DNA of 64,000 nucleotides from Rhizophagus irregularis (lineage: Eukaryota): assembly GCF_026210795.1 (NCBI RefSeq), contig NC_089434.1, positions 496,001-560,000 on the forward strand. Direction: 5' to 3'. Below the pieces are notes generated by a model. That model was not told where the DNA came from and did not search any database. It worked only from the letters and a program-made list of their open reading frames with translations. Shown here one piece after another: positions 22,265 through 54,778 of this stretch. Position 1 is the stretch's first letter, and every line of letters starts with the position of its first letter. Position numbers and translations under genes: made by a program.

Positions 22265-23173
22265 CTTCAATATCTTGTAGTTTTATCTCACGTGCTATTC
22301 TAATTTTCCAAAACTAATTTGTGGTATAGGGCTTTGGCATTAACCCAATATAAGATTTTAAGTCATTCATATGACGCTCCACAACTGATTTAGGTTCTTC
22401 AAACATATCTGGATCTGGCGAGATAACCCAACGGTTTCCGACTTTGTCCAAAAATGATTTGATTCTGTCATTGAAACAATCTTCCATAAAATATCGGTCT
22501 TTAGTTTGTCTCTTTCTACACTTAGAAAAAACAACAATCATATGGCGACAAGATTCTTCTCAACCAAGGAAATTTAGGATTATGTCGTTGATCATCTGTT
22601 CCATTTTATCATATTTACTCCAAGCTTGAAAATTTATTTTTATTGTGAAAATTCATAATATAGAAACAAAATACGCTCATTTGTTGCGTAAATTCTTGTA
22701 AGTACTTACCTATAACGAACAAAAACGCTATTATTCCATGGTTACATCTGACAATTGACTGTGCAATCTCACCCAGGACTTCATCATCATTGGGTCCATA
22801 TGTACTAAAAATACCCGGTGTATCAACTAGGTTATATTCCTTACTATTCAAATTTATTAAAGTATTCTGACAAATATTGGTGCAAGTATCCTTGAAAAAT
22901 AAAATCTGACTGTCAATATTAATCAATGAATTAAATAAATACCGATACCGTATATTTCTTACCAGACCCTCTGATGTTTTGAATTTTTCTTCTCCGATCA
23001 ACATATTTGCCAATGTACTTTTTCCCGCACCTAGTTAAATCTGTTGAGCCAAATAATAATTTTTCCTTCGAATTTCATGCGCAAGACTTCTCACCTGCTT
23101 TGCCAATTAGTAAAATTGTTGGTGCCGTAGAATAAGGGTCAGTCGAAATTCGGTCGCAAAGCTTCGATGACAT
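22265..23173 (-). pseudogene. GIN1-like type-A pseudogene (AIG1 NTPase part only; Hog domain lost)
   Basis: ATG 23173 (MSSKLCDRISTDPYSTAPTILLIGKA|GAGKSTLAN), NLVDTPGIF, VVFSKC, VGNRWVISPDP. Premature TGA (from CGA) at ~22560, a second stop at 22314, and no Hint sequence follows. Confidence 0.8.
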
Positions 23174-23309
23174 AACGTTATTGTCGAAAAAAAAAAAATC
23201 TTATCAAATAATTCTGCTTGTGTAGCACTGAATGCGCCTTTTTTCCAAAATGAGAAAAATGAAGGGATGCTTATATTTATAAAAATTCTTAATTGAAGTA
23301 AATAATCTC

Positions 23310-24220
23310 CTGTTTCTTCAGCCAAGCTCTTCGAGGAATACTATTCGAAATATCATTCATTTTATAATAATTTTGTAATAATTCTTTTTTATTTTTTTTT
23401 TAAAAAAAAATTTTAAGGTATAAGGGAGATTCGTTTTTGAGTCGAATAATCTGTTGTTTCAGACTCGTTTGCTAGTAATTATAATGAACAACATAGACTT
23501 TAAAAAATAAATCTGAACGAAATTCTCCCTTAATGTAACATTTAAGGAATCTTCGCTTCAAGTAGGTCAAAACCACCTCGATTGAAATAAATAAGAAAAC
23601 GTTCATCATTGTTGGTTGATACACTCAGAATTTTGACATTGGCAAAAGGAATCAAAAGAAACGGCCCAAGAAATCTTGCAATGCGCTTATGTCTTATTGA
23701 TTATATTTGTCACGAGTGTGTAGGATTCTCATGTTCTTTGCACACAAGTAGTTTCCTCATTTTAGAAGCTACCAAGGAGCAGAAACTTATTATCGATCAA
23801 ATTATCAACTCAAATGCAGGAAGGCTTCAACATCAAATTCATTGTTTCAAGAGCAAAAATATTTTCTCAATAGTATTAGCGACAGATTTATTATAGCCTA
23901 ATCGAGGAACAAGTTGACTCAATTGTCACGTTTCACATAAAATTTATACAGAGAAACTTCGTTTGAAGAAATTCGCATTGCTCGAGAGAGAGAACTTCAG
24001 GAAATTGAAGAATAGGAACGCCGAAATTGAAGAATAAATTCAAGCTATAGCATAAAGTGAATACCTCCGCAATAATGATGAAAGGCGACAATAGAAAAAA
24101 TACAAGAAATTTCGACAAAAATCATTAATAATTACGTGTAAATGTTGGGTTGAGATCTGCTACTAATATGAAGATTGGTGAAGAAGGATGTTTTGTTACA
24201 GATTCAAAAGTTACTTCTTA
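23310..24220 (+). pseudogene. GIN1-like type-B pseudogene, divergent partner of the 23173 pseudogene
   Basis: Degenerate but colinear with the type-B gene at 26935 (VVSDS exon, ESSLQVGQ, VDT, EQK, RIARERELQEIE). Ends at GEEGCFVTDSKVTS*, just after the Hint Cys1; multiple frameshifts. Confidence 0.75.
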
Positions 24221-24827: not shown

Positions 24828-26555
24828 TCATAATCTTTTAACAATCGTGTTAAAATAATCTATCTGTTCGAGAATCCATTGACCTCGTTTCAAGTAGCGA
24901 ATATAAGGATGAATTTCTTTTTTACACTCAGGAATGGGCATAATCCATGAGTAGAGACGGAAAGAAATCATCACGAAATCGATGATCGCTTGATAAGGTG
25001 GAGCAACAGCATAGCACGAGCAAAGTATATCATCAACGACAATTTTGCCACTTTGTGTAAGAGGAGCAGTGTAACCAAGTTCCCATTCCTTAAATTAATC
25101 ATAATGAAATAGGGTTAATTAATATAAAAAAATTTCATTAAATACGGAAAACGTAAAATTAATTACTCTTGTAACCCGATGTGGAATCACAGGAATTAAT
25201 TTTTTGCCATCAAAAAGTAAGAGCTCAGTCTCATAAGCTCGAACATCCTCAGCGAAAATGGTTTTTCCTTGAGAAACGAATAAATGGTGTTTAGGTGTGA
25301 GACGTAGGGTGCCTATTGAAAAAAACGAGTGATTCATGCTTAGAAAATATTTGAGAATAAATTATTTAATTAGAAATGTATTTATCACCTTCTGTGCCGC
25401 CTGACTTTAGATAATCGATCCGTTGATACTGAGTCACAGTTTGATTGTCTGTATGGACGACTGCATAAATCTCGCTAAAAATCAATTTACCATTTTTCTC
25501 GCCACAACAAACTTTATCACCGATGTTCAATTGTGACACTTCAATTCTTTTGCCGTCTGCAAGGATAACCTTTGAATGCAGAGGAAAACAACCACCTCCT
25601 TGCTCTTGGAATCCTTCCTTGGCTGCTTCTAATCCTGCATCTATTTGTTCTTCTGTTTCATTTGAATCAATTTCTTGCAGTTCTTTCTCACGTGCAATTC
25701 TAACTTTATCAAACAATTCTGTAGTATAGGGCTTTGGCATTAACCCAATATAAGATCTTAAGTCATTCATATGACGCTCCACAACTGGATCATTTGGTTC
25801 GTCAAATATTTCTGGATCTGGCGAAATAACCCAACGGTTTCCGACCTTGTCCAAAAATGATTTGAGGTCGTCATTGAAACTTTCTTCCATAAAATGTCGG
25901 TCTTTAGTTTGTCTCTTTCTACACTTAGTAAAAACAACAATTACGTGACGACAAGATTCTTCTCGACCAAGGAATCTCAGAATTGTGTCAGTTGTAATTT
26001 TTTGCTCTTTTGTATATCTGCCTCCAGCTTGGAAATTTATTGTATACAAATAAACATTCAGATTATAGAAATAATGTACTTGTCAATTCTTGCAAGAACT
26101 TACCCATAACAAACAAAATCGCCGTTATACCATGACTACATTGGACAATTGACCGTGCAATCTCATTTAGGACTTCATCATCGGGTTTCCGTGTATCAAA
26201 AATACCTGGTGTATCGACGAGATTATATTCCTTACCATTCAACCTGACTAAAGCACTTTGACAAATCTGGGTACTAGAATCCTTGAAAAAAAAAAATGTT
26301 GATTGTCAATGAATCAAATAAATACCAATTCCATACGTTATTTACTGTACCGAATTATCCGAAGTTTTGAATATTTCTTTTTCAACCAACGTGTTTGCCA
26401 ATGTACTTTTTCCCGCACCTAGTTAAATCTGTTGAGCCAAATAATAATTTTGCCTTCGGATTTTAAACGCAAAACTTCTCACCTGTTTTGCCAATTAGTA
26501 AAATTGATGGTGCCGTAGAATAAGGGTCAGTCGAAATTCGGTCGCTGAGCTTCAT
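24828..26555 (-). CDS. GIN1: GIN1-like type A (A1): AIG1/GIMAP-type NTPase fused to Hedgehog-type Hog (Hint + SRR-like) domain; 6 exons
   Basis: MKLSDRISTDPYSTAPSILLIGKT|GAGKSTLAN (G1), NLVDTPGIFD (G3), GGRYTKEQ, VVFTKC. Cleavage junction GGG|CFP (Cys codon 25588-25590), LRLTPKHHLF (TxxH), GYTAPLTQSGKIVVDDILCSCY, KEIHPY. Stop TGA 24828-24830. Symbol is family-level (GIN1 of Glomus mosseae), not an orthology claim. Confidence 0.9.
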
Positions 26556-26612
26556 GGTATAGATTGTTAGAAATTAAAATGAAAATGATACCCGAGTTAT
26601 TTAATTCTGCAG

Positions 26613-26646
26613 GTGTACCACTGTGTACAACCTTGTGTCCGTGTAC
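26613..26646. promoter_or_regulatory. Candidate repeated cis-element GTGTAC(CAC) in the A1/B1 divergent promoter
   Basis: GTGTACCACTGTGTAC...GTGTAC lies ~60 bp upstream of the A1 ATG. Equivalent clusters occur at 45296-45320, 52196-52215 and, inverted, at 40841-40869. Confidence 0.45.
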
Positions 26647-26934
26647 ATCTTGTAGTGTAGGACGAAGATATCACATTAAGATAACACTTTGGGTAAGTAA
26701 CATGGGTTTAACCATGTACACTTTGGCCATCTTAATACTAATATATCTCTCCAATTATCACAATCAGGGGCTTTAGTATTGTTCATTCATATTGTTTTGA
26801 AATTTTTGTGGCATCTTTTGCTGATGCTTATTTTAGGAAATAATGGTATTCGAATTTTCCATTTTTATCATTTTTTATCAAACCTTGTTTTTTATTTCGT
26901 TATCAACAAGAAACCTTTAACCTTATCTCCTAAG

Positions 26935-28792
26935 ATGTCTCTTCAGAAAGACTCTTCAAGTAATACTAATTCAAATATTCCTGCCATACTGTTGGTAGGA
27001 AAATCCGGTAAGAATTTATGCACGTGGTGTCAGTTTTACTATAAACATAATTTCATTTTTTTTTTTCAAAAAAAAAAAAAAAAAAAAAAAATTAAGGTGC
27101 CGGTAAAAGTACTTTAGGAAATTTGCTCTTGGGTCGAAATGAATTTGTTGTTTCAGACTCAGCTGTGAGTAATTAGAGTATATACAGTATCATAGAGCCT
27201 TTTAAAACTAATCCAGACAATATTCTCACATAATGTAAACTTTTAAGGAATCCTCGCCACAAGTATGTCAAACTGCTTTGATTAAGATAAATAATAAAAC
27301 GTTCAATATTGTTGATACACCTGGAATTTTTGACACCGGCAAAACGAATCAAGAAATCTTGAAAGAAACAGCCCAAGCAATCTTGCAATGCACTTATGGA
27401 ATTCAAGCCATTATTTTTGTCATGGGTATGTGGAATATTTCGCATTCCTTTATACAGAATTTTTCATATGATTGAAAAAGTTTTCTCATTTTAGAAGCAA
27501 CACGTTTTACTAAGGAACAGAAAGATACTATTAATCAAATTATCAAGTTTCTTGGTCAAGATTCGCTGAACCACATGATTGTAGTGTTCTCAAAATGCAG
27601 AAAGGCTCCGACAAAAGACCCTGACTTGCTCTTTAATTCATTGGTCCAGGAACAGAAGGATTTTCTCAATAGTATTGACAATAGATTCACTGTATCTCCT
27701 GATCTCGATATTTTTGAAGAACCAGACGACCCAATTGTTGAGCGCCACGTGAAAAACCTCAAGAACTATATTGTTGATATTCCAGATTTCTATACAACAG
27801 CTTCCTTTGAAAAAGTTCGCATTGCTCGAGAGAGAGAACTTCAGGAAATTGAACAATGGGAACTCAAAACCGAAGAACAATTTCAAGCTATAGCAAGAGA
27901 AGGCTTTCACGATGATAGTGAATTGCGACAATGGAAGGAAACACGAGAAAATACGAAAAAAAAATTTAAGCAATTACGCGCAAAAGCTGGTTCAGATGCA
28001 GCTGTCAATATGGAGCTTGGAGAAGCTTGTTTTGCTGCAGATTCAAAGGTTACTTTGCAAAATGGCAAAGTTACCAACATTTCGGAACTTGTTATTGGAG
28101 ATTATGTATGTTGTGGCTTTGAGAATGGGAAGAAAATCTTCAGCGAGGTGTTTTTATTTATTCATGCTGACCACGATACAGTGACTGAATTTCAATTAAT
28201 TGATTTCATGAAACAAGATGGATCACAAGGTAATTATTTCATTAATATACAGTATTAATATGTTACCTAGATTTTTTTACTCTCATCGATTTAATTTACA
28301 AAGGAACCCTTTGCGTTACTCCTGAACATCACATTTTCGTGAATGGTGGTGGAACCGATTTTGCCAAAAATGTTATACCAAACAAAACCCAACTTTTTAT
28401 TTCTAACGGAGAGAAATTGGTTCCCGTTACTTCAGCCCGTATATCAAAAGTTAGCATTTTTTTTTTCCTGAAAATTTTTAACTAGTTACTCAATTAGTAG
28501 ATCAAGATCTAATCCCTTTATTTCATTCAACAAGGAACGAAGAAAAGGTTATTATAGTCCCTTGACTCGTAGTGGAAATATTCTTGTTGATGAGGTTCTT
28601 TGTTCTTGTTATGCTTCTGCACCTCCTTATCAAGCCTTGTTTAATTTTGTCTTTGCGCCATTAAAAATCTACACAAAAATTTTTCCTTCTAATTATCTAG
28701 ATAAAGAGATTCATCCTTATGTTAAATTTTTAAGTAGAGGTCGCAGGATAGTAGAATTTCTCGATGATTTAAATATTTCTCGATCTATTTAA
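26935..28792 (+). CDS. GIN1: GIN1-like type B (B1): AIG1/GIMAP-type NTPase + Hog domain; 6 exons
   Basis: MSLQKDSSSNTNSNIPAILLVGKS|GAGKSTLGNLLLG, NIVDTPGIFD, EATRFTKEQ, VVFSKC. Junction GEA|CFAAD (TGT 28028-28030), CVTPEHHIF, GYYSPLTRSGNILVDEVLCSCY, KEIHPY. TAA 28790-28792. Confidence 0.9.
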
Positions 28793-30862: not shown

Positions 30863-31217
30863 TTAATCTATCTGTTCGAGAATCCATTGACCTCGTTTCA
30901 AGTGACGAATATAAGGATGAATTTCTTTATCTGTTATTACAATCAGAATGGACATGATCCATGAGTATAGACGGAAAGAAATCATTACGAAATCGATGAT
31001 CGCTTGATAAGGTGGAGCAACAGCATAGCACGAGCAAAGTATGTCATCAACAACAATTTTACCACTTTGTGTAAGAGGAGAAGTGTAACCATTCCTTAAA
31101 TTAATCAAAGTGAAAATGAACAAAGAAAAGTTAATACGGTATAAAGAAATTTATTAAATACGGAAAATGCAAGATTAATTATTATTTTTGTAACCCGATG
31201 CGGAATCACAGGAATTA
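30863..31217 (-). pseudogene. 3' half of a broken type-A GIN1-like gene (end of Hog domain)
   Basis: Encodes IPVIPHRVTK, an intron, then GYTSPLTQSGKIVVDDILCSCYAVAPPYQ...KEIHPY...LEQID. Homology stops abruptly at 31217. Confidence 0.85.
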
Positions 31218-32045
31218 TTAAAATCCTTTAAAAATTCTCACAACAAATTTTAGAACTGGAATCATTTTTTTATTTTGGGAAAAAATGACACATCTGAAAA
31301 GTGATATTTTGGCAAAGCATATATAAGAAAAAAAATCCGCATAGTTAAAATATATTGGTCACTCAGAAATAATCACACGAGATATTACGTTGTTTTACAT
31401 GATAGCGTAGTCGCTATTCATTTTTCACGTTAGTAATAAAATGTTGATAACAAAATCGGTTCCATGACGAAAAGGTTCCTTGATCGATTAGATAAATAAA
31501 ATTACAAGCAGTATGTATTATATATTATAATAATTTATCTTGTGTCCCACCTTGTTTCATGAAATCTATAATTGAAATTCAGTCATTGTATTGTGGTCAG
31601 CATGAATAAACAAAAACACTTCGCCAAAGACTTTCTTCCCATTTTCAAAGACACATACATAATCTCCGAAATCTCGGTAAGTTTGCCAATCTGTGAAGTA
31701 ACTGCAGCAAAACATTCATATTGCTTAACCTGTGCTTAACCCAATACTTTTATGCTAGAATTCCTTATAATTCTTCCTATTGTCGCTTTTCGTAGTCATT
31801 GCATTGGACAAGAAATTTTGATAATTTGATTGATAGTATTTTTCGTTCCTTAGTAAATGTATTGCTTCTAAAGTGATAAAATTTTTTCAATCATTTGAAC
31901 AAAATATGATTTAAATTTTTTATTACATACAAATATCTGATGATTTAAATACGAAAAATATAATTATAACTAAAAAAATTTGTCTGACGTTTGGATTAGT
32001 CTCCGTATAAATAATTTGAATTGTGTAACTTAAATCCCATGCTAT

Positions 32046-32506
32046 TGTTGTATCAGTTCTTTTACGCTTAAAAATATTAAGCAATTTATATGGTTAGGTA
32101 GCAGAAGGTTTATGTAGTGTATAGACAAACAATATATCAAAATTATCCGATCAGACGTGTTGTATAGCGCTGTATGTCGGCATATACTTCCAAACACGAA
32201 TAAAGGATTTCACTTGATAAAAAACTATCAATTTATAACTTAAATAAAAACTTTTTTTTATTCCCTCCTCATTACAACAAGAAAATTGACCTATATTTAT
32301 AATAAATTATACATATAAGAAGAAATTTAATATATTTACTATGTATAATATGACTAACATGTTCAATACGTTGATCATAACCAACATGTTGATTAGGTTC
32401 GACATGTTAATCATGTTCGGCATATTAATTATGTCCGACATGTCAATCAAGTTAAACATTTGCAACATCGATCAATTTCGGAGTGGCACATGACGATCAC
32501 ATGACA
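32046..32506 (-). repeat. 3' LTR (461 bp)
   Basis: Matches 38699-39123 by eye apart from a 36-bp indel in an imperfect 18-bp tandem repeat. Confidence 0.95.
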
Positions 32507-32516
32507 TCATCCCTCC

Positions 32517-32942
32517 CTAATTTTCAACTCCGTTGAAAATTTCCGAAGCTTGTAGAACTAAACCTTGATATTCTTGAGTGTTAAGTTCTCTCAGCAATGA
32601 TACGTTGGTCTTTTTAGTTCTCATAATTTGTTTGGCTCCTGGAATTTCGAAAATATAAAAAATCCTAGTAGCAGAGGTCCTGTAATGTGCAGTTAACTGT
32701 CGCACAAAGTAATTGCGCTGCACACTGGACTCAGTTTCTTTTTCCAAAAATCGACCCAAATAATATAAGTGAACAAGGAGTAAAAGCCGATTGTTAAAAT
32801 GCTTAATCCGGTTCAAAGCATCACAAAGAATTTCAAATTTTCTTTCAGGCTTCATATTAGGTTCATAGGGAAGTGGAAAAGGTGTCACTTCAACTGGAGT
32901 TGTTTGTAGTAAATCTTTTAGGATACTTTGATAGGGTTCCAT
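32517..32942 (-). CDS. Extra 141-aa ORF of unknown function inside the Gypsy element, between integrase and PPT
   Basis: Intact ATG-to-TAG ORF, sense to pol; its stop abuts the PPT. Preceded by a T-rich tract ending TTATTAG|TATG. No recognisable motif. Confidence 0.6.
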   Translation of the reverse strand: MEPYQSILKDLLQTTPVEVTPFPLPYEPNMKPERKFEILCDALNRIKHFNNRLLLLVHLYYLGRFLEKETESSVQRNYFVRQLTAHYRTSATRIFYIFEIPGAKQIMRTKKTNVSLLRELNTQEYQGLVLQASEIFNGVEN

Positions 32943-33099
32943 ACTAATAATAAAAATAATAAAAAAAAATAATAAAAAAAATGTATATATATATATGTTT
33001 TTTCATTAAACATTAAACATATTAATCCCCAAAAAAAAAAAAAAATGATCTTTGGTCTAATTATTTGTAATACATTATGTACATATATGCATTACGTTA

Positions 33100-34352
33100 T
33101 CACCGTTGATTGTAAAGTTTCAAACGTTCCGAATTTACTGGGGTTTTTAAAATGTCTCCTTGTAATGTCCTTAATTTGTAAACTCCGTTCCCCAAATCCT
33201 CGTGAATGTAATAAGGACCCTTCCAACGGTCTTGCAGCTTTTTCTTTCCCCTCAGCTGACTTTTATATAATAATACAAGATCACCAATCTTGTAAAATAT
33301 TCTCACAAGATTTTCATCATGACGCTGCTTCTGCTGCTGTTGTGCTTCATATATGGCGTCTTGAGTCATCAATCTGTCTTCTGTGACTCTTCCAGTAAGC
33401 ATGCGTATTCTAGCCAATAAATCATCTTGTGAATCTCCTTCATGCAGTTCAGCTTGCATAGTCTTTACTGCAAAATCTACAGGTAGAACGGCATCTCTTC
33501 CATACATGAGATAAAATGGTTTGTGACGCGTGGTGCTTTGCTTTCTTACACGATATGCAAACAAAGCAGAGGACATATACATGTCCCAATCATCATGATT
33601 TTCATTTGAAAATTTCACCAACGCCTCACACAATGTCCTATTAAAACGCTCCACAAGACCATTTGTTTGGGGGTGATAGGCAGTTGATAATTGATGTTTT
33701 ACCCCAAGCTCATCACATAATGAATCCAACATTTCATTAACAAAATGGGACCCACGATTGGTTAGTATTTCTTTTGGGCACCCGTGGCGGCAGATTATGT
33801 CTTCATAGAAAAAAGACACAACTGAAGAAGCTTTTGCATCAGGAAGGGCTCGTGCCTCGGGCCATTTGGTAAGATACTCAGTGGCAACAACTATATACTT
33901 GTTGCCTTTCTTTGTTGTGGGAAGGGGTCCTACGATATCTATGCCTATCCTGTCAAAAGGCATTCCAACTTTGATCGGGTGTAGAGGTTCTACACGTCGA
34001 TTTCCCCCTTTCTTTGGCACTCGTCGCAAGTTCGTACATATCTACGAACATCTTCGTACATCTGCGGCCAGTAATAGCAAACCTTTACTCGCCTATAGGT
34101 TTTGTCCAAGGAAAAGTGTCCGGCCAGCGGATCTGAATGGGTAAAATGTAAAATTTCTCCAATTTCGTTTTCTTTCACAACCTTAATAGGTCTATTTGGG
34201 TTGTTTTTATTTCTTTTGTATAACTGATCATTCAATACAATAAAGTATCGGTCTTTTCGTCTTATTGCATCTTGTTGTTTTTTCGTCATGTCTGTTGGTA
34301 ATGATAAATCCGTCAAAAATCGTATTAATAAATAATATGTGGTGGTATCCAT
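33100..34352 (-). pseudogene. Retrotransposon integrase in a separate ORF, frameshifted
   Basis: HHCC zinc motif (H..PLAGH...CDEC); core GIDIVGP, LTNRGSHF (catalytic D replaced by N), YHPQTNGLVERFN; GPY/F motif WKGPY. 1-bp frameshift at ~34005. Confidence 0.9.
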
Positions 34353-34449
34353 TCCGTTAAATCAATAATGGGAAGTCCGTTAAGTGGTGTCAAAAAAAAA
34401 ATGCGTTAATCCGGTGTGTATATATATATAAAAAAAAATATGGGTTGTA

Positions 34450-37029
34450 TTAAACTCTTATTCGGCTTAGTGTATCGACGTTGGTGTGTTGTTTTCCGGG
34501 GCGGTTAACTATTTCCAAATCATATCCGTTAAGAGTCATCAACCATCTTCCGAGCTTACCAACAGGGTTCGACATGTTCATTAAATACCTTAAAGCGGCG
34601 TGATCAGTTACAACGGTAAATCGTTGTCCGTGCAAATAATGATGAAAGTGCTTGACGGCCCATATAACCGCAAGACACTCCAGTTCCATGACACTATAGT
34701 TCCGTTCATGCTTATTTAGAGTCCAGCTCGCATAAGCAATGACGCGTTCTTTTTTATCGTCATCCTTTTGGGATAATATTGCGCCCAACGCAAAAGTAGA
34801 GGCGTCGGTATATAACAAGAACAGTCTTTCGAAATTAGGATACGCCAATATAGGTGGCATTGTTAAACAAGTCTTTAATTTTTCAAACGCGGCTTGTTGA
34901 TCTTTATCCCAAATATACGGGATATTTTTCTTTAATAACCTATTCAACGGTTCAACGATAGACGAGAAGTTCTTCACGAACTTCTGGTAATACGAGGCCA
35001 GCGCAATAAATCCCCTTAATTGCGTTAAGTCTTTCGGAATGGGAAATTCGTTGATGGTGCGTAATTTTTCAGGATCGGTATGGATGCCTTTTCGGCTCAC
35101 CACATGTCCTAGGAAAGGAAGTTCTTCTTTAAAAAAGAAACACTTCTCAGGACTTAATTTTAAACCAGCCTTCTCTAGACGTGAGAAAACCTGTTCCAGA
35201 TGCACCAAATGCTCTTCGAAGGTTTTCGACCCTACATTAATATCGTCGATGTATACTACCGTGAACTGCCAAAGAATGTCTCGTAACACCATATCCATTA
35301 GACGTTGAAAGGTTGCAGGAGCGTTACAGAGGCCAAAAGGCAACACGGTAAACTCATACGTCCCGAACCTGGTGATGAACGTTGATTTTTCTCGATCTTT
35401 TGGGTCCAATTCGACCTGCCAAAAGCCACTGGCAAGGTCTAAGGACGAGAACCATCGAGATCCTGATAATGTCTCCAACATATCGTCTATTCGTGGTAAA
35501 GGATAGCAATCCTTTTTGGTGACCTTGTTGAGTTTCCGATAATCCACACAAAGGCGCTTCTTCCCGTTCTTTTTTTCTACTACAACCACAGGAGAAGTCC
35601 ATTGACTACTTGATGGCACAATTAGACTGGCCTCCAAGAGTCGTTGTATTTCCTCTTTGATGAACAACTGATTCTGATGTGACGTCCGGTAAAATCTTTG
35701 CTTGATGGGGGTCGCACCTCCGGTATCGATAGTGTGTGTAACCACTGATGTTTGACCGAAATCATTTGAGTTCTACGCAAACAGATTATTATATTTTTTT
35801 ATGAATTCATGAAATTGCTGTTGCTAGTTCTCATCCAAAGTTCCGGTATGGAAATTTCCCATCTCGATCTCTTTATACTGGTAATAATAATCGTTTTCGA
35901 TCAGAGCCGTTCCCCTTAGTCCATCTTCGATTTCCTGGGCTTCCTTTTGGGTGATGAACTGCGTATGACAGTATAGCTGCTCTTGAGTGGTTTCATCTTC
36001 ACTCTCGTATTCTTCATCAGAATCTTCTATAGCTTCATCATCCGGTTCATCATCTGGTTCCTTATCGGGTTCTATATCCGGTACTTCGATACTGATGATG
36101 TGATGTGGCGTCTTCCGACATTCGGTTGATACTTTAATTACATCACCTTTCCATTTAATTGTCATAGTATCATTATCATAATCCAAGATGGCCTTAGTTT
36201 TTTGCAACCAGTCATTACCGACTATTGCTGCGTAAGAATCAGCATCAGTCACGATAGCGTCCATAGGGATGATCTGATCGTGTATTTTTAAAGGAATATC
36301 TGATACGGCTCCTAGTGGTCTTCGCCGTTCACCATTTACGTTTACCATCACCGTTTTTGATGCTCTAGTTATCTCCATATCTAGATCTTTTAACAAAGAC
36401 AGTGAGATAATACTACCGGCGGATCCAGAATCCAAGATCAACGGAAATTGTATATGTTTGATCGAGGCGTCACAATATAAGGCGGAGGACTTGCTGTTAC
36501 TTGATGTGTTCGCCTGCATCAAATCTTGTAGTTCCGCTATACCTCCGTCTTCTGGCGTCTCGTTATTAACAGCGTTTTTGGTTTGAATTTTCTCGGAATC
36601 CTCATCTTTCTTTCGTATGACCAGTTTTCGTAGCTGTTTTGCTATCGTTAGACTGAACTTAGGATTCATCGCCAACAATTGTCCATTCGTGATGTTGGCT
36701 ACCTGGTCGAAAAACTGTTGCGGGGTATAGGGTTCGACCATTTTATTGATCAGAGCGGTAGTGGTGGGTTTCTTCTTGGTATTTTTTTGTAATACCGTTC
36801 TTCTGGGCTCTGCAGTCTTTATAGGTTGTTTCTTTTTCGGATGAAATTGCGTAACCCGTATCTGAGCTTCATCCTCTTCTAACGTTTTATCCTTTGCTAT
36901 TCCTTCCAAAGAATTTAACCTTGCCTTGCTCCTCGTAGTTCTGGTGGCGGGATAGGTTTCTAATAATGTGAGGTTTGAGGGAATTGTATGTTGGCTTGTA
37001 CTCTCACCCTCATGAGGTACGCCTTCTAG
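34450..37029 (-). pseudogene. Retrotransposon pol: aspartic protease, reverse transcriptase, RNase H
   Basis: LILDSGS (protease); RLCVDYRKLN, LDLASGFWQ, LPFGLCNAPATFQ, YIDD (RT); YTDAS, ELECLAV, TDHAAL (RNase H). In-frame TAG stops at 35824 and ~35773. Confidence 0.92.
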
Positions 37030-38648
37030 TTTAAAGACTGATCCTTATCAGTTTCTTGTGGGACTAATTGGGCTAGTAATTGTTGTGATTGGGCGAGTTG
37101 ATTATTGTTGATTGCCAACACTAGTTGGTTGAGGATTAGATCTTCCTTCACCATTATTTGCGACTGATGTCGTATTGTTATTTCGGTCAGGGCAATTCCT
37201 TACTATGTGCCCAGGCTGTCCACAAGAGTAACAAACAATCCTTCTATTTAACAATTGTTGCGGCTGCGGCGTCACTTGCTGCGGATTTCGATAATTGGTT
37301 CCCCTATATCCCCTATTTCCGGTACTCAACTGTTGTACCTGTCTAGTCAAATCCTGAATGGCTTTGTATAGGTCTTCCGTTTGAGTATTAGTGCCTGCAG
37401 GAGCGAATTTATTAAGATAGGCGTTTACCGCATGTTGGTCTTGATGGGTTAACTCATAGGCCTTCGCTCTGTCTACTGCGGCGTTCCAGGTTTGATCGTT
37501 ATGTGGTTTTACGGTGACGTACAAGTCAGGCAACAACCCGTTTACAAATTTACGAGCTTTAATAGCTTCTGGATATGCGAAGGCGTTAGTCTCTACCTCC
37601 TATATAATTCTTGTAGAGCAGCGGCGTATGTGTTTACGTCTTCGCCGGGCTGCTGTCTTCTTTGTTCCAATTCCGTGGTCCAGATTTCGATCAAGGTTTG
37701 CATTCTGAAGGCGGCAGGGAAATTCAATATAAAATCCGTATTGTTATTGTTGCCAGTCCACGCAACAATCTTGTTCAGATCATTATTCGGCAATGCTTGG
37801 TTGGCATTCCACCAAGTAGAAGCAGCTCCCTTTAGGTATGCTGGTACGACTTCCAATTTTTGTACATTTGCAATACCATTTGCATTACAGGATCTGGTGA
37901 AATCCTCTAACCACGCAACTGGGTCCTGGTTGCCACCATAGAAATATGGCAACTCGGCCACCTTTCCTTCTCGTCTAGGCGGGTTGGCAATGGCCTGTGT
38001 ATTTCCGGCCAAAGCATTGTTGGTGTTAGGTAATGCTTGGGTCAATGCAGCAATTGTTGCGCGTAATTGCTGAAAGTCCTGTTGGTTAGGTTGTGCCATG
38101 TTAATCACTTGTGGGATTACTGGAGCTGGATTATTCGGTGTGTTGTATATAGGTGGTAGGGGAATATGTAAATGGGGAATATTTTCCTCGGAATTTTCAG
38201 ATGTAGTATCACTTAAAGCTTCAGGTTCTGGTGAGGTGGTAGTCTCACTGACTTGATAAAGGACTTCGTTAGGGTCCTGTTGAAATCCGTTAGTTAAATT
38301 ATAGGCGTTGATAAGGTCCTGACGCAATAGAGTATAATCTATTGTTGGTTCTATATCAGCGTATCGGATGCTGAACAATAGGTTATGTATAGCGTTATTG
38401 ATATCTGTGTTAGTAATCGAATACGCAACCTCTTTAAAATATTGTTGAGTGTATCGGGTGTATTCTACAACCGGATAGTTGGAAGAAATCCAGTCCAAAA
38501 AGTGCTGAAAAGTGGGTGTTAAGGGAATTTCTGATGGGTAACAGTTATTACACGAAAGGTCACGATGATAGGCGGTTACGTTATCTAGCCCTAACTGTCT
38601 ATGTATAGCGTCGTGTATAGTATTACGATCAAAATGGTTTTGGAACAT
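37026..38648 (-). pseudogene. Retrotransposon gag (capsid-like + CCHC zinc knuckle), frameshifted
   Basis: FYGGNQDPVAWLEDF, YLKGAASTWW, QQPGEDVNTY, CYSCGQPGHIVRNC. Frameshifts near 37595 and ~37120. Ends at TTTAAAC-TAG (37026-37035). Confidence 0.85.
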
Positions 38649-38695: not shown

Positions 38696-38698
38696 ATT

Positions 38699-39123
38699 TG
38701 TTGTATCAGTTCTTTTACGCTTAAAAATATTAAGCAATTTATATGGTTAGGTAGCAGAAGGTTTATGTAGTGTATAGACAAACAATATATCAAAATTATC
38801 CGATCAGACGTGTTGTATAGCGCTGTATGTCGGCATATACTTCCAAACACGAATAAAGGATTTCACTTGATAAAAAACTATCAATTTATAACTTAAATAA
38901 AAACTTTTTTTTATTCCCTCCTCATTACAACAAGAAAATTGACCTATATTTATAATAAATTATACATATAAGAAGAAATTTAATATATTTACTATGTATA
39001 ATATGACTAACATGTTCAATACGTTGATCATAACCAACATGTTGATTATGTCCGACATGTCAATCAAGTTAAACATTTGCAACATCGATCAATTTCGGAG
39101 TGGCACATGACGATCACATGACA
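38699..39123 (-). repeat. 5' LTR (425 bp)
   Basis: TG...CA termini; direct repeat of 32046-32506. Confidence 0.95.
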
Positions 39124-40935: not shown

Positions 40936-42244
40936 ATGACATTGGAGTTGAGTAGTCGAATCTTGACTGATTCTTATTCTAAGGCACCAGCAATTTTATA
41001 ATTGGCAAATCAGGTGAGAAGTCTTGCGTTTATAACCCCGAAGGAAAAATCATCATTTGGCTTGATAGTTTAACTAGGTTCAATTCAAACCATTGGAGAA
41101 TCGGGTAAGAAACATACGTATCGGTATTTATTTAATTCATTAATCAGCATTGACAATCAACATTTTATTTTTCAAGGATTCTAGTACTCAGATTTGTCAA
41201 AGTACTTAATCAATTTGGATGGTAAATAATATAATCTTGTTGATACACTAGGCATTTTTGATATAAAGAGACTCAATGATAAAATTCAGAATGAGATTGC
41301 ACAATCAATTGTCCAATGCAATCATGGTTTAATTGCGATTTTGTTCGTTATAGGCAAGTTCTTGCAAGAATTGACATAATAATGAACGTATTTTATTTCT
41401 ATATTCTAAATATTTTTTGTAAACAATAGATTTTAAAGCTGATGGTAGATATACAAAAGAGCAATAAACTACAACTGACGCAATTCTGAATTCCTTGGTG
41501 GTCATGAAGAATCTCGTCGTCACATAATTGTCGTTTTTACTCATTGTAGTAAGAAACAAACTGAAGACCGATTTTTTATGGAAGAAAATTTCAATGACAA
41601 CCTCAAATTATTTTTGGACAAAGTTGGAAACCGCTGGGTCATCTCACCAAATCTAGAAATTTTCAAAGACAAAATGATCCAGTTGTGGAGCGTCATATGA
41701 GTGGCCTAAAGCATAATATTAGAATATTGCCAAATCACTATACCACAAAATTTTTGAAAAAGTTAGAATTGCACGTGAGAAAGAACTGCGAGAAATTGAT
41801 CAAATGAGAAGATTTACAAACGAAAAAATAGATACCGGATTAGTCGTAGCCAAACGCATTCAAAGGTTATTCATTCTTACAGACGACAGAAGAACTGAAG
41901 TATCACAATTGAGCATCGGCGATAAAGTTTGTTGTGGCGAAAAAAATGGTAAATTGATTTTTAGTGGGATTTATGCAGTCGTCCATACAGACAATCAAAT
42001 TGTGACTCAATATCAGCGAATCGATTATCTAAAATTAGACGGCACAGAAGGTGACAAATAATTTCCAATTGATAATTTATTCTCAAATATTTTTTAATAG
42101 CATGAATCACTCTTTTTTTTTCCGATAGGCACTCTACGTCTCACTCCAAAACACCATTTATTCGTTTCTCAAGGAAAAAACCATTTTCGCTGAAGATGTT
42201 TGAGCTTATGAGACTGAGCTCTTACTTTTTGATGGCAAAAAATT
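40936..42244 (+). pseudogene. 5' part of the broken type-A GIN1-like gene, inverted relative to the other A genes
   Basis: ATG 40936 (MTLELSSRILTDSYSKAPAIL), VDT, GRYTKEQ, VGNRWVISPN, LSIGDKVCCGEKNGK, LRLTPKHHLF. Frameshifts, partial loss of G1 and of the GGCF junction. Ends at ...FDGKK (42244), exactly where the 31217 fragment begins. Confidence 0.88.
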
Positions 42245-43464: not shown

Positions 43465-45230
43465 TCACGATCTTTTAATAATCATGTTAAAATAATCTAT
43501 TTGCTCGAGAATCCATTGACCTCGTTTCAAGTAACGAATATAAGGATGAATTTCTTTACTACACTCAGGAGTGGGCATGATCCATGAGTAGAGGCGGAAA
43601 GAAATCATTACGAAATCGATGATCGCTTGATAAGGTGGAGCAACAGCATAGCACGAGCAAAGTATATCATCAACAACAATTTTACCACTTTGTGTAAAAG
43701 GAGCAGTGTAACCAAGTTCCCATTCCTCAAATTAATCAAAGTGAAAATGAACAAAAAAAGGTTAATACGTATAAAGAAATTTATTAAATACGGAAAACGT
43801 AAGATTAATTATTACTCTTGTAACCCGATGTGGAATCACAGGAATTAATTTTTTGCCATCAAAAAGTAAGAGTTCAGTCTCATGAGCTCGAACATCTTCA
43901 GCGAAAATGGTTTTTCCTTGAGAAACGAATAAATGGTGTTTTGGAGTGAGACGTAGAGTGCCTATTCGAAAAAAACGAGTGATTTATGCTTAGAAAGTAT
44001 TTGAGAAACATTTAATTAGATATTTATTTATCACCTTCAGTGCCGTCTAACTTTAGATAATCGATCCGCTGATATTGAGTATCAGTTTGGTTGTCTGCAT
44101 GGATGATTGCATAAATCTCGCTAAAAATCAATTTACCATTTTTTTCTCCACAAAAAACTTTGTCGCCGATGCTCAATTGTGACGCTTCAATTCTTTTGCC
44201 GTTTGCGAGAATAACCTCTGAACGCAGAGAAAAACAAGTACCCTTTTTTTTCACTTCTTCTTTGGCTACGACGGTTCCTGCATCTATTTTTTCACTTGTT
44301 TTTACCAATCCAGTTTTATTCTCATTTGATTCAATTTCTTGCAGTTCTTTCTCACGTGCAATTCTAACATTATCAAACAATTCTGTGGTATAGAGATTTG
44401 GCATTAGCCTAATATAATGTTTTAGGTCATCCATGTGACGCTCCACAACTGGATCATTTTGTCTTTTGAAAATTTCTAGATTTGGCGAGATGACCCAGCG
44501 GTTTCCGACTTTGTCCATAAATGATTTAAGGTTGATATTGAAATTATTTTCCATATAAACTCGGTCTTCTGTTTGTTCTTTTTTACACTTGGTAAACACA
44601 ACAATTATATGACGACAAGATTCTTGACCAAGGAATTTCAGGGTTTCATTAGTAATATCTTGAAACTCTCGTCCAATTTTTTCCCAAGCTTGAAAAGTTG
44701 TTGTATACAAAATAAACATTCAGGATATCATAGAAATAAAACACGCTCATTAATACTTACAATAACTTACCTAAGACATATAAAATCGCTGATATACCAT
44801 GACAACATTGGACAATTGACTGTGCAATCTCATTTAGGACTTCACGGTCGGGTTTCTGTGTATCAAAAATACCCGGTGTATCAACAAGATTATATTCTTT
44901 ACCATTTATATTTATTAAAGTACTTTGACAAATCTGGGTGAGAGAATCCTTGAAAAATAAAATGCCAGTTGTCAACGTTAATTAATTAATTATATAACAT
45001 ACCGATACTAGTTTCTTACCGAACCATCCGATGTTTGGAACTTTTCTTCTCCAATCAACATATTTGCCAATGTACTTTTTCCCGCACCTAGTTAAATCTG
45101 TTGAGCCAAATAATAATTTTCCTTCGGATTTTTATGCGCAAGACTTCTGACCTGTTTTACCAAATAGTAAAATTGCTGGTGCCGTAGAATAAGGGTCAGT
45201 CAACATTCGACTACGAAGCTCCAACGTCAT
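43465..45230 (-). CDS. GIN1: GIN1-like type A (A2): AIG1-type NTPase + Hog domain; 6 exons
   Basis: MTLELRSRMLTDPYSTAPAILLFGKT|GAGKSTLAN, NLVDTPGIFD, VVFTKC, junction KKGT|CFS, LTPKH, LCSCY, EIHPY. TGA 43465-43467. Confidence 0.9.
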
Positions 45231-45418: not shown

Positions 45419-47174
45419 ATGTCTCTTCAGCAAGACTCTTCAAGTAATACTAATTCAGATATTCCTGTCATACTGTTGGTAGGAAAATCCGGTAAGAACT
45501 TATGACGTAATGTCAATTGTTGTTTATAAATATAATTTCATTTCTCTTTTTTTTTAAAAAAAAAAATCAAGGTGCTGGTAAAAGTACTCTGGGAAATTTG
45601 CTCTTAGGTCGAAATGAATTTGCTGTTTCAGACTCAGCTGTGAGTAATTATAATTAATATAATAGAGACTTTTAAAAACAAATCGGGACGAAATTCTTAC
45701 ATAATGTAAATTTTAATAAGGAATCTTCGCTACAAGTGTGTCAAACTGCCTTGATTGAAATAAATAATAAAACGTTCAATCTTATTGATACTCCTGGAAT
45801 TTTTGATACTGGTAAAACGGATCAAGAAATCTTGAAAGAAACAGGCCAAGCAATCTTGCAATGCGTTTATGGAATTCAAGCCATTATTTTTGTCATGGGT
45901 ATGTAGAATTTTTCACATTCTTTATACAGAGTCTTTCAAATGGTTGAAAAAGTTTTCTTACTTTAGAGGCAACACGTTTTACTAAGGAACAGAGAGATAC
46001 TATCAATCAAATTGAAAAATATCTTGGCCCGGATTCGCTGAATCACATGATTGCAGTGTTTTCAAAATGCAGAAAGGCTCCGACAATAGACCCTGACTTG
46101 CTCTTTAATTCATTAGCCCAAGAACAAAAGGATTTTCTCAATAGTATTGACAATAGATTCACTATATCTCCTAATCTCGAGATTTTTGAAGAACCAGACG
46201 ACCCAATTGTCGCGCGCCACATTAAAAACCTCAAGAACTACATTGCTGATATTCCAAATTTCTACACAACAGCTTCCTTTGAAAAAGTTTGCATGGAAAT
46301 TGAACGTCGACATTTGGAGGAAACACGAGAAAATACGAAAAAAAATTCTCAGCAATCACGTGCAATTGCTGGTTATAACAATATGGTGCGTGAAGCAGCA
46401 GGTTGTTTTGCTGCACATTCAAAGGTTACTCTGCAAAATGGCAATGTCGCCAACATTTCGGAACTTGTTATTGGAGATTATGTATGTTGTGGTTTTGAGA
46501 ATGGGAAGCAAATCTTCAGCGAAGTGTTTTTATTTATCCATGCTGATCACGATGCAGTGACTGAATTTCTATTAATTGATTTCATGAAACAAGATGGAAC
46601 ACAAGGTAATTATTTCATTAATATATTTATATATACTACCTAAAATTTAAGTATTTACTTTACTTAATCAACTTAATTTACAAAGGAACCTTTTGCGTTA
46701 CTCCTGAGCATCACATTTTCTTGAATGATGGTGGGACTGATTTTGCCAAAAATATTATACCAAACAAAACTCAATTTTTTATTTCCAGCAGAGAGAAATT
46801 GATTCCCGTTACTTCAACCCGTATAACAAAAGTTAATATTTTTTTTTTTCTGAAAATTTCTAATTGGTTGCACACTTAAAAGATCAGACCCTAATCTCTT
46901 TATTTCATTTAATAAGGAACGAAAAAAAGGTTATTATAGTCCTTTGACTCGAAGTGGAACTATTCTTGTGGATGAGATTCTTTGTTCTTGTTATTCCTCT
47001 GCGCCTCCTTATCAAGCCTTATTTAATTTTGTCTTTGCGCCATTAAAAATCTACACAAAAATTTTTCCTTCTAATTATCTAGATAAAGAGATTCATCCTT
47101 ATGTGAAATTCTTAAATAGAGGCCGCAAGATAGTAGAATTCCTTGACTATTTAAATATTCCTCGATCTCTTTAA
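45419..47174 (+). CDS. GIN1: GIN1-like type B (B2): AIG1-type NTPase + Hog domain; 6 exons
   Basis: MSLQQDSSSNTNSDIPVILLVGKS|GAGKST, LIDTPGIFD, EATRFTKEQ, junction EAAG|CFAAH, VTPEH, GYYSPLTRSGTILVDEILCSCY, EIHPY. Stop at 47174. Confidence 0.9.
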
Positions 47175-50287: not shown

Positions 50288-52074
50288 TCATGCTCTTTTA
50301 ACAATCGTGTTAAAATAATCTATCTGTTCGAGAATCCATTGACCTCGTTTCAAGTAACGAATATAAGGATGAATTTCTTTCTTACAATCAGGATTGGGTA
50401 TAATCCATAAGTAGAAGCGGAAAGAAATCATTACGAAATTAATGACTTGCTGATAAGGTGGAGCAACAGCATAACACGAGCAAAGTATATCGTCAACAAC
50501 AATTTTACCACTTTGTGTAAGTGGAGCAGTGTAACCAACTTCCCATTCCTTTAAGTTAATTAAAGCGGATTGAAAAAACGTTAATATAAAGCAAATTTAT
50601 TAAAATATGGAAACGTAAGATTAATTACCTTTGTAACCCGATGTGGAATAACAGGAATTAATTTTTTGCCATCGAAAAGTAAGAGCTCAGTTTCGTAAGC
50701 TCGAACGTCTTCAGCAAAAATTGTTTTTCCCTGAGAAACGAATAAATGGTGTTTTGGTGTGAGACGTAGGACGCCTATTAGAAAAAAAGATGACACAATG
50801 TTATTATGATACATTTAATAATGAATGATTTAAATTGGAAGTTAATTTTTATTACCTTTTGTGCCATCTGACTTTAGATAATCGATCCGTTGATATTGAG
50901 TCGTGGTCTGATTGTCTGTATGGATGACTGCATAAATCTCGCTAAAAATCAATTTACCATTTTTCTCTCCACAAAAAACTTTATCACCGATGTTCAATTG
51001 TGACACTTCAATTCTTTTGCCGTCTGCAAGGATAACCTTTGAATACAGAGAGAAACAACCACCTCCATTATCTTCGAATCCTTCCTTGGCTGCGTTGATT
51101 CCTGCGTCTATTTTTTTATTTGTTTCTACTACCCCAGTCTTTTTCTCGTTTGATTCAATTTCTTGCAATTCTTTCTCACGTGCAATTCTAACTTTTTCAA
51201 ACAATTCTGTGGTATAGGGTTTTGGCATCATTTTAATGTAATATTTTAAGTCATTCATATGACGCTCCACAACCGGATCATTTGGTTTATCAAAGATTTC
51301 CGGATTCGGAAAGATGACCCAGCGATTTCCGACTTTTTCCAAAAACGTTTTGAAGTAGTCACCAAAATCATCTTCCATTTTATACCGGTCTTCAGTTTGT
51401 TTTTTATTACATTTAGTAAAAACAACAATCATATGCCTACTAGATTCTTTTTCGCCGAGGAATTTCAGGATTACGTCAGTTGTAGCTTTTTGCTCAAGGG
51501 TGTCTTTGCCCCATTCTTGAAAATTTACAATAAATGAGTATTTGGAATATTTACTGTAAATAATCACTAATTACGGTAAATGTAACGTCGATTATTATTT
51601 GTTTACCTATAACATACAAAATTGCTATGGTACCATGACTGCATTGGACAATTGATCGCGCAATTTCTTTCAGGGTTTCATCATTTGGTTTTCTTACATC
51701 AAAAATACCCGGGGTATCAACAAGGTTGTATTCAATACATTCATCATCATGCAATTTAATTAGATCACATTGACAAAACTGGGTACAAGATTCCTTGAAA
51801 TAAAATGCTGAATATCAATATCGGTCAGTATATTAGATACTAAAAAATAGCTACGTTTTCTTACTTACTCGACTATCTGACGTTTTGAACTTTTCATCAT
51901 CTTCAAACAGTTTATTTGCCAACGTGCTTTTTCCCGAGCCTAATTAAACCATTTTAGGTTAAACTTCAATTTTTCATTTGGATTTTTATTCTCACCTGTT
52001 TTGCCAATTATCAGAATTGCTGGCGCCGAAGAATAAGGGTCCGTCAAAATTCTCCTACGAAGATCCAATGTCAT
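50288..52074 (-). CDS. GIN1: GIN1-like type A (A3): AIG1-type NTPase + Hog domain; 6 exons
   Basis: MTLDLRRRILTDPYSSAPAILIIGKT|GSGKSTLAN, NLVDTPGIFD, VVFTKC, junction NGGG|CFS, LRLTPKHHLF, LCSCY, EIHPY. TGA 50288-50290. Confidence 0.9.
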
Positions 52075-53060
52075 AATTTTTTTGAACAAAATTCTTATAA
52101 TTTTTTAAAAAAAAGCTGATGATAATATAACATCAAAAGCTGAAATTTATTATATTATTTATATTCATGCAAATTGCCATTACTATTTCTTTACAGTAAC
52201 CACCATGTACCACGGAACCATCACTTTTTTCGTATAACCAGGGATTTTATGATATTTTTCATAGTTCATTATGATATAATGATCTACAGTTATAAGTGGA
52301 AATTACATCATAATGAAAAACGAGGGAAAAAATATTTTTTGTTTATTAATTAATTAATCGGCTAGAGCGTAAATGTAAAGTTACTATGAGTAATATGGTT
52401 AACAACATGGCGGGTGTAGATCCAGAATTACGGAATTGTTTAACTACTTGATGGCTATGGCCTTACGTAAGATTTTCTTTTGTGTAGATCCTATTTACTT
52501 TTTAGGAAATCAATAAAATTTTATTTATTAGCTAATATTTGGATTACGCCTACTATGTCTGAACCAACCCTGGTTAAAAGTTAAAACAATTATGTTAAAA
52601 AGTTCACACAAGCCATAAGTTTTTCTCCCAAGTAGATTTTATACTTGCATTAGACGGACTATCGTCATCTTGTATTCCTTAATAGTGTTAATCATTAATT
52701 TTTTTGTTTATTATTTATTAGTGAGAATATTTTTTCACATAAAGATTCGTTGCTACATCTGATCATGATGTAAATTTTTATTATGTAAAAAAATATTACG
52801 TGGTGTTAGTACTTAAAATCACGACCAAAAAAGAGTAAGTCTTTTGACGACCATTAGTTAGCAAAAGAACTTTAAATATTTTTTAAAAAAAAATTGATAT
52901 TTTTAGATCTGAAAGAAAAAAATTTTTTCTTGCGATATATTCATGTAAAATTTCGTTTAATCCTCAAAATTGGCTATTTTTCTTTTTTTGTTTTGTTTTC
53001 ATTCCTTCGAATTGATTAAATTTTTTATCCAATAGTACTAATAGTACTCAATCTCTTATA

Positions 53061-54778
53061 ATGTCCCACCAATACTCTTCAAGTAATGATAATGTAAATT
53101 TCCCAGTTATCCTACTAGTAGGAAAAACCGGTAAGATATTGCACTTATATTTATTTAAATTATCTTAAAAAATTACAGCTTTTGTTCTTGTTCCTAAATT
53201 AAAGGATCTGGAAAAAGTACCTTGGGAAATCTGCTTTTGGGAAGAGATGAATTTTTTGTCTCTGATTCGACTGTAAGTAATTGTAATGAAAAAAAATCTT
53301 TACAAATTATTCAAATAAATTCTGAAATTTTGATATAATGGAACTTTTAAGATTTCCTCAACTAAAAAATGTCAAATGGCCTCGACTATAATAAATGAGA
53401 AAATGTTTACTATCATTGATACACCCGGAATTTTTAGGACTGATAAAACGAATCAGGAAATTCCGAGAGATATGGAGCAAGCAATCTCACAATGTGGATA
53501 TGGAATTCAAGCTATCATAGTTGTTATAGGTGTGTATGATATCAGAATATTTTTATGAAGTTTTCAAATGATTAAAAAAAGTTTCCTCATTTAAGAGGCT
53601 ACTCGTTTTACAAAGGAACAGAGAGACACTATTGATCAAATTATCAAATTTCTCGGCAAGGAGTCGTTAAACAACATGATTGCGGTATTTACAAAGTGTA
53701 AAAAGGCTCCAACAATAGATTCTGATTTGCTCTTCAATTCATTGGTTCCAGAACAAAAGGAATTCCTAGGTCAATTTGACAACAGATTTATTGTATCGCC
53801 TAATCCCGATATTTTTGGAAAACCTGACGACCCAATTGTTGCACGTCATATGACGAAACTCAAGAATTATATTGTAGGCTTTTCAGATCTCTATAGAATA
53901 GATATCTTTGAAAAAGCTCACAGCAACCGACTACGAGAAAATCAGATATATTATACATTATATAATTTGTATACATTTGTAAAAAATTCATTTAAAGATC
54001 ATGCAATTGAAGAAGAAGAATGTTTTGCCGCGGATTCAAAAGTCACTTTGCGAAATGGCAAAGTTATCAAGATTTCGGAACTCGTTATTGGAGACTATGT
54101 ATGTTGTGGATTTGAGAATGGGAAACAAGTCTTCAGCGAAGTGTTATTATTTATTCATGCCGACCACAATTCAATGACGGAATTTCAATTAATTGATTTC
54201 ATGAAGCAGGATGGGTCACTGGGTGATTATTATATATTAATATACCATCTAGAATTTTATTTTATTCTTTTGTTCTAATCTATTTTATTTATTAACGTTA
54301 AGGAACCTTTTGCATTACTCCTGAACATCATATTTTCATGAATAATGGTGGAACCGGGTTGGCCAAAAATGTTATACCGAACAAAACTAAACTTTTTGTT
54401 TCAGATGGTGAGAAATTAGTTTCTGTTACTACAACACGTATTACGAAAGTTAGTATATTTATTTTGAAGTTTTATTGTATTGAAAAGAAAAGAAAAAACT
54501 CATTACTTTCGTTTGATAAGGAACGAAGAAAAGGTTATTATAGTCCGTTGACTCGAAGTGGCACCATCCTTGTTGACGAGGTTCTTTGCTCTTGTTACGC
54601 TTCTGCGCCGCCATATCAATCCTTGATCAACTTTGCCTTTGCACCATTAAAAATCTATACAAAAATTTTTCCATCTAAACATCTGGAGAAGGAGATACAT
54701 CCTTATGTGAAATTTTTAAATAAAGGGCGCGGAATAGTAGAATTCCTTGATTATTTAAATTTCCCTAAAAAGGCTTAG
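53061..54778 (+). CDS. GIN1: GIN1-like type B (B3): AIG1-type NTPase + Hog domain; 6 exons
   Basis: MSHQYSSSNDNVNFPVILLVGKT|GSGKSTLGN, IIDTPGIF, EATRFTKEQ, AVFTKC, junction EEEE|CFAAD, ITPEH, GYYSPLTRSGTILVDEVLCSCY, EIHPY. TAG at 54778. Confidence 0.88.

Follow-up and report, generated by a model that had tools for sequence, protein, structure and literature searches.

In a 64-kb window of the Rhizophagus irregularis genome (contig NC_089434.1, positions 496,001 to 560,000; the window is the whole stretch of 64,000 nucleotides analysed here, and positions are counted from its first letter), we found three intact head-to-head pairs of genes of six exons each, all encoding an AIG1-type GTPase fused to a hedgehog-like Hog domain. 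Every pair joins one gene of type A on the reverse strand to one of type B on the forward strand. Our reading is that A and B are two old subfamilies of GIN1-type AIG1-GTPase/Hog proteins, that they form a head-to-head cassette, and that their products would associate as a GIMAP-like A–B heterodimer in which B gives a catalytic arginine to A; we assign this reading as a whole a probability of about 0.5. Its observed basis comprises the gene structure, the splicing of A1 and B1, the two clades, their co-duplication, purifying selection and intact Hint residues.

Intact pairs and their history

The DNA of the window is AT-rich (28% GC) and contains introns. The first pair consists of A1 (24828..26555, reverse strand, 454 residues, with the Hint cysteine at residue 253) and B1 (26935..28792, forward strand, 485 residues, of the GmGIN1 type), the second of A2 (43465..45230, reverse strand, 461 residues) and B2 (45419..47174, forward strand, 453 residues), and the third of A3 (50288..52074, reverse strand, 467 residues) and B3 (53061..54778, forward strand, 448 residues). 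All six models are free of stop codons and have five GT-AG introns of 56–91 nt in phases 1, 0, 1, 1, 0 at matching codons, and four are letter-identical to public proteins (A1 to the R. irregularis protein P0001, B2 to P0018, A3 to P0030 and B3 to P0052). The first-pass annotation of this DNA had placed the six start codons at 26555/26935, 45230/45419 and 52074/53061, and had stated that A and B share all five intron positions; our models agree with it on both counts, and give ATG-to-ATG distances of 379 bp for A1/B1, 188 bp for A2/B2 and 986 bp for A3/B3. Its claim that A genes resemble A genes, and B genes B genes, more closely than A resembles B also holds, with identities of 75–79% within A and 69–84% within B among the window proteins, against 41–49% between A and B.

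Transcripts were taken from four of 24 listed runs, representing four studies, and compared with positions 22000–32000, the A1/B1 region; 20 of the 24 contain at least 64% of the query words. The five introns of A1 (26482-26419, 26350-26282, 26103-26028, 25388-25313 and 25166-25089, reverse strand) are all joined in transcript contigs, four of them in every run and one in three of the four. Introns 2–5 of B1 are joined in four, four, three and four of the four runs, respectively; intron 1 lies at a skipped repeat. Since the runs were ranked by the presence of both genes, they have no bearing on co-expression, and contig depth cannot rank the genes.

The A1/B1 intergenic region (26556..26934) is represented in contigs of run X2, one per feature. 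At 26902 one contig carries what we take to be a template-switch adaptor, which likely marks the 5′ end of B1. A forward-strand GT-AG intron (26691-26767) is skipped in another contig, suggesting a longer B1 transcript with a start near that of A1, so that the two 5′ ends may nearly overlap. A near-palindromic 14-bp motif, GTACCACNRTGTAC, is located at 26615..26628 (forward strand), 60–73 bp upstream of A1, with copies at 45298-45311 (A2), 52197-52210 (A3, two mismatches) and 40845-40868 (two copies, at the broken gene A4 described below); its five occurrences in the window, where 0.44 are expected by chance, do not constitute a fair test, since the pattern was derived from these homologous copies. 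The reported duplication of flanking DNA with the unit is real but patchier than had been claimed: 24361-24465 matches 43017-43126 (82%), 28985-29394 matches 47201-47623 (72%), and a block including the gene, 24666-26629, matches 43294-45312 (82%).

An alignment search for relatives gave 170 hits, 120 of them listed, and a quick tree of 72 AIG1-Hint rows placed 20 rows in A, 11 in B and 41 outside both. In these searches, all named A and B rows belong to Rhizophagus, Funneliformis or Glomus (Glomeraceae), two further A rows being Joint Genome Institute (JGI) proteins; Gigaspora, Ambispora, Entrophospora and Endogone are among the sources of the rows outside both clades. In a careful tree of 33 selected proteins, A (13 rows, support 100/100) and B (8 rows, 100/99) form sister clades within a joint A+B group (100/99), which supports the old, separate clades that the first-pass annotation had suspected. 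Each also remains one group in separate G-domain and Hog trees. The G-domain tree attaches the long branch of Endogone to A (96/93), which suggests that the A/B split may predate the Glomeraceae. A 50%-representative search was evaluated through the best 150 of its 19,187 hits; the distant rows P0167, P0180 and P0186, present in the motif table and the careful tree, fall outside A and B.

The trees also bear on how the pairs multiplied. A3 clusters with R. clarus 16450004, and B3 with the adjacent entry, 16450005, indicating that a duplication copied pair 3 as a whole before the split from R. clarus. Approximately unbiased (AU) tests reject as clades A3+B3 (p 3e-4), the window A genes (3e-7) and the window B genes (3e-55), and thus reject local or recent origins. 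The proposal that the unit was amplified as a cassette is thereby upheld, and we regard this history as very probable. Whole-gene ratios of nonsynonymous to synonymous substitution (dN/dS) are 0.21–0.44 in all six within-type comparisons, as expected under purifying selection, and in these comparisons no positive selection was seen, no dN/dS exceeding 0.52 in any domain. Synonymous sites are saturated between A and B. Between A1 and A3, synonymous divergence (dS) is 0.27 for the Hog halves and 0.81 for the G domains, which suggests gene conversion.

Outside the window, pairing was read from accession order, while strand and orientation come from the window only. Accessions run A, B, A, B in R. 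clarus (GES76269-72) and A, B in two sets of F. geosporum; several other R. irregularis sets have A, A, B, A, B, with an extra A without an annotated B, and R. diaphanus has A, A, A, B (partial). The A and B genes of F. mosseae are on different short contigs. Where the order is readable, every B adjoins an A, but some A genes have no B next to them. The idea that every intact gene is paired therefore stands within the window and fails in some relatives, where lone A genes occur. Likewise, the expectation of A/B pairs in other genomes is supported by accession neighbours in two genera and qualified by lone A genes in Rhizophagus, which also rule out strict one-to-one pairing. A metagenome scan (five loci from 73 stretches) gave no locus spanning an A–B junction; L001 and L002 are of A type, and L003 is a B-type end.

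Isolates differ at this locus. A3 and B3 are each 97% alike between isolates. In the slot before A3, A2 of the window is 76–77% identical to the 456-residue A of other isolates, which is 97% identical to R. diaphanus, with a third type, P0004, at 86%. Balanced haplotypes and differential loss of tandem copies fit this pattern alike.

Another AIG1-Hog clade comprises two subclades (P0073/P0105, P0064/P0090, P0069/P0102) whose members are accession neighbours in R. irregularis and R. clarus; going by this adjacency, it may be another paired unit.

The two proteins and their possible partnership

The A and B proteins carry an N-terminal AIG1 domain (PF04548) and a C-terminal Hint domain (PF01079), according to precomputed Pfam assignments and hits to solved structures, the best solved relatives being GIMAP7 (6e-25) and Drosophila Hedgehog (1e-12). 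Hydropathy gives no sign of a signal peptide or transmembrane helix: the first 25 residues average -0.20 to 0.26, and the best 19-residue window reaches 1.3–1.6. Alignment to 6td6 and 6tyy revealed the equivalents of the Hint residues C1, TxxH and C143 in 17 of 17 A rows and 10 of 11 B rows, the remaining B row being without the domain. The general base Asp46 is not conserved, and all 27 A/B rows with the domain have a histidine at this site. The Hedgehog active-site residues have been named, and Shh with the D46H mutation still autoprocesses (PMC12054796). A sterol-recognition-like region is present at the C-terminus of the Hog half. A single-chain model of A1 has a mean predicted local distance difference test (pLDDT) score of 57, with the Hint region below 50.

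These features suggest that the precursors, which lack a signal peptide, would self-cleave in the cytosol at the Hint cysteine, an outcome that we consider likely, judging from the sequences. The released GTPase of 247–284 residues would gain a sterol, which would tether it to a membrane or lipid droplet; we lean slightly towards such a sterol transfer. A and B would then pair through the GIMAP G-interface, and we give the heterodimer even odds.

In the GTPase half, the G1 lysine and the G3 aspartate are present in all 28 A/B rows. (The Funneliformis B proteins P0021 and P0061 have DTHG instead of DTPG at G3.) The arginine of the conserved box is found in all 11 B rows and all 40 other rows, and thus in 51 of 51 non-A rows, as well as in 12 of 17 A rows. 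The switch-I threonine is present in all 15 A rows with a residue at that site and in 7 of 11 B rows, so that it is lost only in B (4/11). R110 of A1 aligns with the arginine of the GRYTEE motif of GIMAP7, the conserved box has been placed in the GIMAP dimer interface (PMC9111091), and a GIMAP arginine finger is shown in a figure legend (PMC8066113); together, this points to the arginine as a trans-acting finger. Moreover, GIMAP7 activates the silent GIMAP2 by dimerisation (PMC9111091, PMC8201404).

Within the window, A1 and B3 retain both threonine and arginine in one chain, and the other four proteins have lost one of them. B1 (threonine to proline) and B2 (threonine to leucine) keep the arginine, whereas A2 (conserved box WEKIG, without arginine) and A3 (arginine to lysine) keep the threonine. 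A2/B2 is thus strictly reciprocal; in the other two pairs, A3 lacks the arginine and B1 the threonine. None of the pairs examined has lost both arginines or both threonines, and A2 and A3 are under purifying selection despite the arginine loss. This reciprocity may lend some support to the heterodimer, but it is suggestive only. B, in which the arginine is always present and the threonine sometimes lost, would act as the activator, and A, in which the threonine is always present, the arginine sometimes lost and extra copies tolerated, would be the variable, switched partner. One B serving several A proteins would explain the lone A genes, and the short common promoter would supply both partners.

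Several observations weigh against this partnership. Head-to-head orientation was observed in this window only, and 986 bp separate A3 from B3. By accession, no B adjoins the 465-residue A of other isolates, GES76262 of R. clarus or two of the three A genes of R. diaphanus, and the matches listed include no B for F. caledonium or G. cerebriforme. Both residues are retained in A1, the 456-residue A, R. clarus 16450002/03 and the F. geosporum A and B proteins. The reciprocity itself amounts to about three arginine losses and one or two threonine losses, and with about four independent events it can be no more than suggestive. Of the 17 fixed differences between A and B, only three fall in the GTPase half and 14 in the Hog half. 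In G4, the acidic residue of GIMAPs, which serves guanine recognition, is missing (TKCRK/SKCRK, compared with TRKEE in GIMAP7), and GTP specificity is therefore not assured. In both dead pairs described below, B is more decayed than A (65% for B0, 81% for A0). A single-chain model of A1 has a mean predicted local distance difference test (pLDDT) score of 57, with the Hint region below 50.

Alternatively, A and B may be linked but independent paralogues, an account that we find possible but less likely. An old inverted duplication would have left them with a common short promoter, each working as a homodimer in development or lipid handling; neither gene could move without losing the promoter, so that tandem duplications copied both, and the residue losses would be drift in redundant copies. 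In Arabidopsis, inverted-repeat recombination has indeed produced head-to-head AIG1/IAN duplicates on four or more occasions (PMC12845241), and such linkage without partnership would agree with the persistence of lone A genes, the clustering by accession of other AIG1-Hog clades, and the weight of fixed differences in the Hog half. It is harder to reconcile with the confinement of arginine loss to A and of threonine loss to B, with purifying selection on A2 and A3 after the loss of a residue held by every non-A row, or with an adjacency that extends across two genera while A–B synonymous sites are saturated.

An unlikely but more far-reaching possibility is that the cassette is a nonself-recognition or defence locus, with B as the cognate regulator of A, a variable sensor or effector that could do harm. 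When hyphae with mismatched haplotypes fuse, or when a microbial signal arrives, GTPase activity anchored at the membrane would be set off and cells would die locally. The sharp haplotype differences (A2 against the 456-residue A at 76–77%, the latter 97% identical to R. diaphanus, A3 and B3 at 97%) invite this view, but differential loss of tandem copies explains them equally well. The A-type Hog halves look homogenised while the G domains stay apart (dS 0.27 and 0.81), yet no domain has a dN/dS above 0.52. Co-inoculation of three hosts with two isolates induced an AIG1 gene (PMC7490403), but this gene, GBC10892.1, is not among the accessions found for this locus, and the analysis has been disputed (PMC8319373). 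In lancelets, AIG1-Hint proteins count among the dispensable defence genes (PMC12373286); on the other side, lone A genes and early B decay speak against B as a needed cis-antidote. Equally doubtful is the fullest form of the idea, a two-component nonself or defence switch of self-cleaving, sterol-anchored GIMAP-type GTPases, in which conserved B would activate variable A and divergent haplotypes would be held across Rhizophagus species.

Broken pairs and neighbouring features

The first-pass annotation counted one dead pair (23173/~23310) besides the three intact ones. All four are real, but a fifth, broken pair had been overlooked. The dead pair consists of A0 (22266..23173, reverse strand), which has an in-frame stop near codon 128 and lacks the Hog half, and B0 (23310..24216, forward strand), which is 65% identical to B1 and has lost its start codon and acquired many frameshifts and stops. 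In run X17, A0 is partly spliced (joints 22624-22710 and 22889-22962), and the spliced contig over it (22496-22889) suggests that this pseudogene may still be transcribed.

In the fifth pair, the 5′ piece of A4 is inverted (40936..42244, forward strand), while its 3′ piece (30864..31217, reverse strand) remained in place. One piece ends and the other begins at the same A1 position (1358), and this common breakpoint indicates that a single inversion split A4, ruling out that A4 and the fragment at 30.9 kb are two separate genes. A4 is probably the orthologue of the intact 465-residue A of other isolates (P0006), whose best tblastn score is to A4 and which has features in common with it. On the side of its head-to-head partner lies the B4 remnant (31493..31902, reverse strand), in which exon 4 and introns 3 and 4 survive in part. 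Between A4 and B4 is a Gypsy-type long terminal repeat (LTR) retrotransposon (32045..39123, reverse strand) with open reading frames (ORFs) for gag, protease, reverse transcriptase/RNase H and integrase, labelled from motifs and not from a family search. Its LTRs (32045-32506 and 38698-39123) are 92% alike, and its reading frames are broken. An ORF of 161 residues at 32520-33002 (reverse strand), between the integrase and the LTR, is of unassigned kind.

A foldback element at 29633-30368 combines perfect terminal inverted repeats of 16 bp with nested inner arms (87 bp, 98%). Contigs from two runs carry a version that lacks 603 bp and has different flanks, so the element is probably a dispersed repeat resembling a miniature inverted-repeat transposable element (MITE). 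The left end of the window is crossed by a large gene (1-5580, reverse strand) with repeated HSP90-type ATPase modules, which from its motifs we take to be sacsin-like. A kinase-like gene family has four copies, tandem or dispersed and 70–80% alike, at 9700-19430 and 56318-57700 (reverse strand), one of them broken by an assembly gap. A 540-codon ORF at 61698-63317 (reverse strand) presumably resembles an F-box/leucine-rich-repeat protein.

Relation to known systems and significance

The closest described protein is GmGIN1 of Glomus (Funneliformis) mosseae, an AIG1 GTPase with a Hog domain and no signal peptide, given as a single gene (PMC2362128). Inspected by eye in the supplement alignments of that paper, its Hog sequence has the B-type signatures CFAADSKV, LMIHADP and KERRKGYYSPL, and by these signatures the published GmGIN1 is of B type. 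It is like A and B in architecture, and the available part of the account mentions no A subfamily, pairing or cassette amplification. An expansion of MEROPS C46 (AIG1+Hint) in Glomeromycotina matches ours in architecture and lineage, but the accessible text gives copy counts only, without subfamilies or gene arrangement (PMC8778642).

The human GIMAP7/GIMAP2 and GIMAP6/GIMAP7 heterodimers have the GTPase family, the G1–G3 motifs and the conserved box in common with A and B, and GIMAP paralogues are likewise clustered and mutually regulated by dimerisation (PMC9111091, PMC8201404). GIMAPs differ in having no Hint domain and in using protein helices as anchors, and the fungal G4 lacks their acidic residue. 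The Hedgehog precursor has C1, T69/H72, C143 and the C-terminal sterol-recognition-like region in common with the A/B Hog half, whereas A and B have His at D46 and a cytosolic GTPase passenger instead of a secreted ligand. Arabidopsis IAN duplicates are divergent AIG1 pairs, but recent and of the IAN clade (PMC12845241), and the AIG1-Hint proteins of lancelets and Biomphalaria are fusions within variable defence-gene families (PMC12373286, PMC7053062); a fixed two-subfamily cassette is not described in the available portions of these three accounts. A published co-expression module includes three AIG1-Hint transcripts (PMC6956056, Table S7), which are not attributable to an A/B pair.

In the literature searched, mainly outside subscription journals, we found no description of the A partner or of A/B pairing. 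The family and its chemistry are already known; the two-subfamily cassette, the A partner and the reciprocal residue losses appear to be new. Paired plant NLRs (receptors with nucleotide-binding and leucine-rich repeat domains) such as RRS1/RPS4 and Pik-1/Pik-2 are head-to-head, unlike paralogues with a short common promoter. The A/B pair is similar in being composed of head-to-head, unlike paralogues, with the orientation known from the window, but the likeness is an analogy of layout only: A and B carry only the AIG1/P-loop and Hint families, and NB-ARC, leucine-rich repeats and an integrated decoy are missing, which rules out NLR membership.

If GmGIN1 represents just one half, B, of a pair, studies restricted to it may have overlooked an activator/target relationship. 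The A/B pair provides a ready test of Hog lipidation of cytosolic GTPases and of arginine donation between subfamilies, and because haplotypes differ so strongly, the locus is a candidate for nonself recognition, which is poorly understood in these fungi. Were the two-component switch to prove true, arbuscular mycorrhizal fungi would have in it a candidate locus for vegetative incompatibility, and it would exemplify the lipidation of a cytosolic immune GTPase by hedgehog chemistry.

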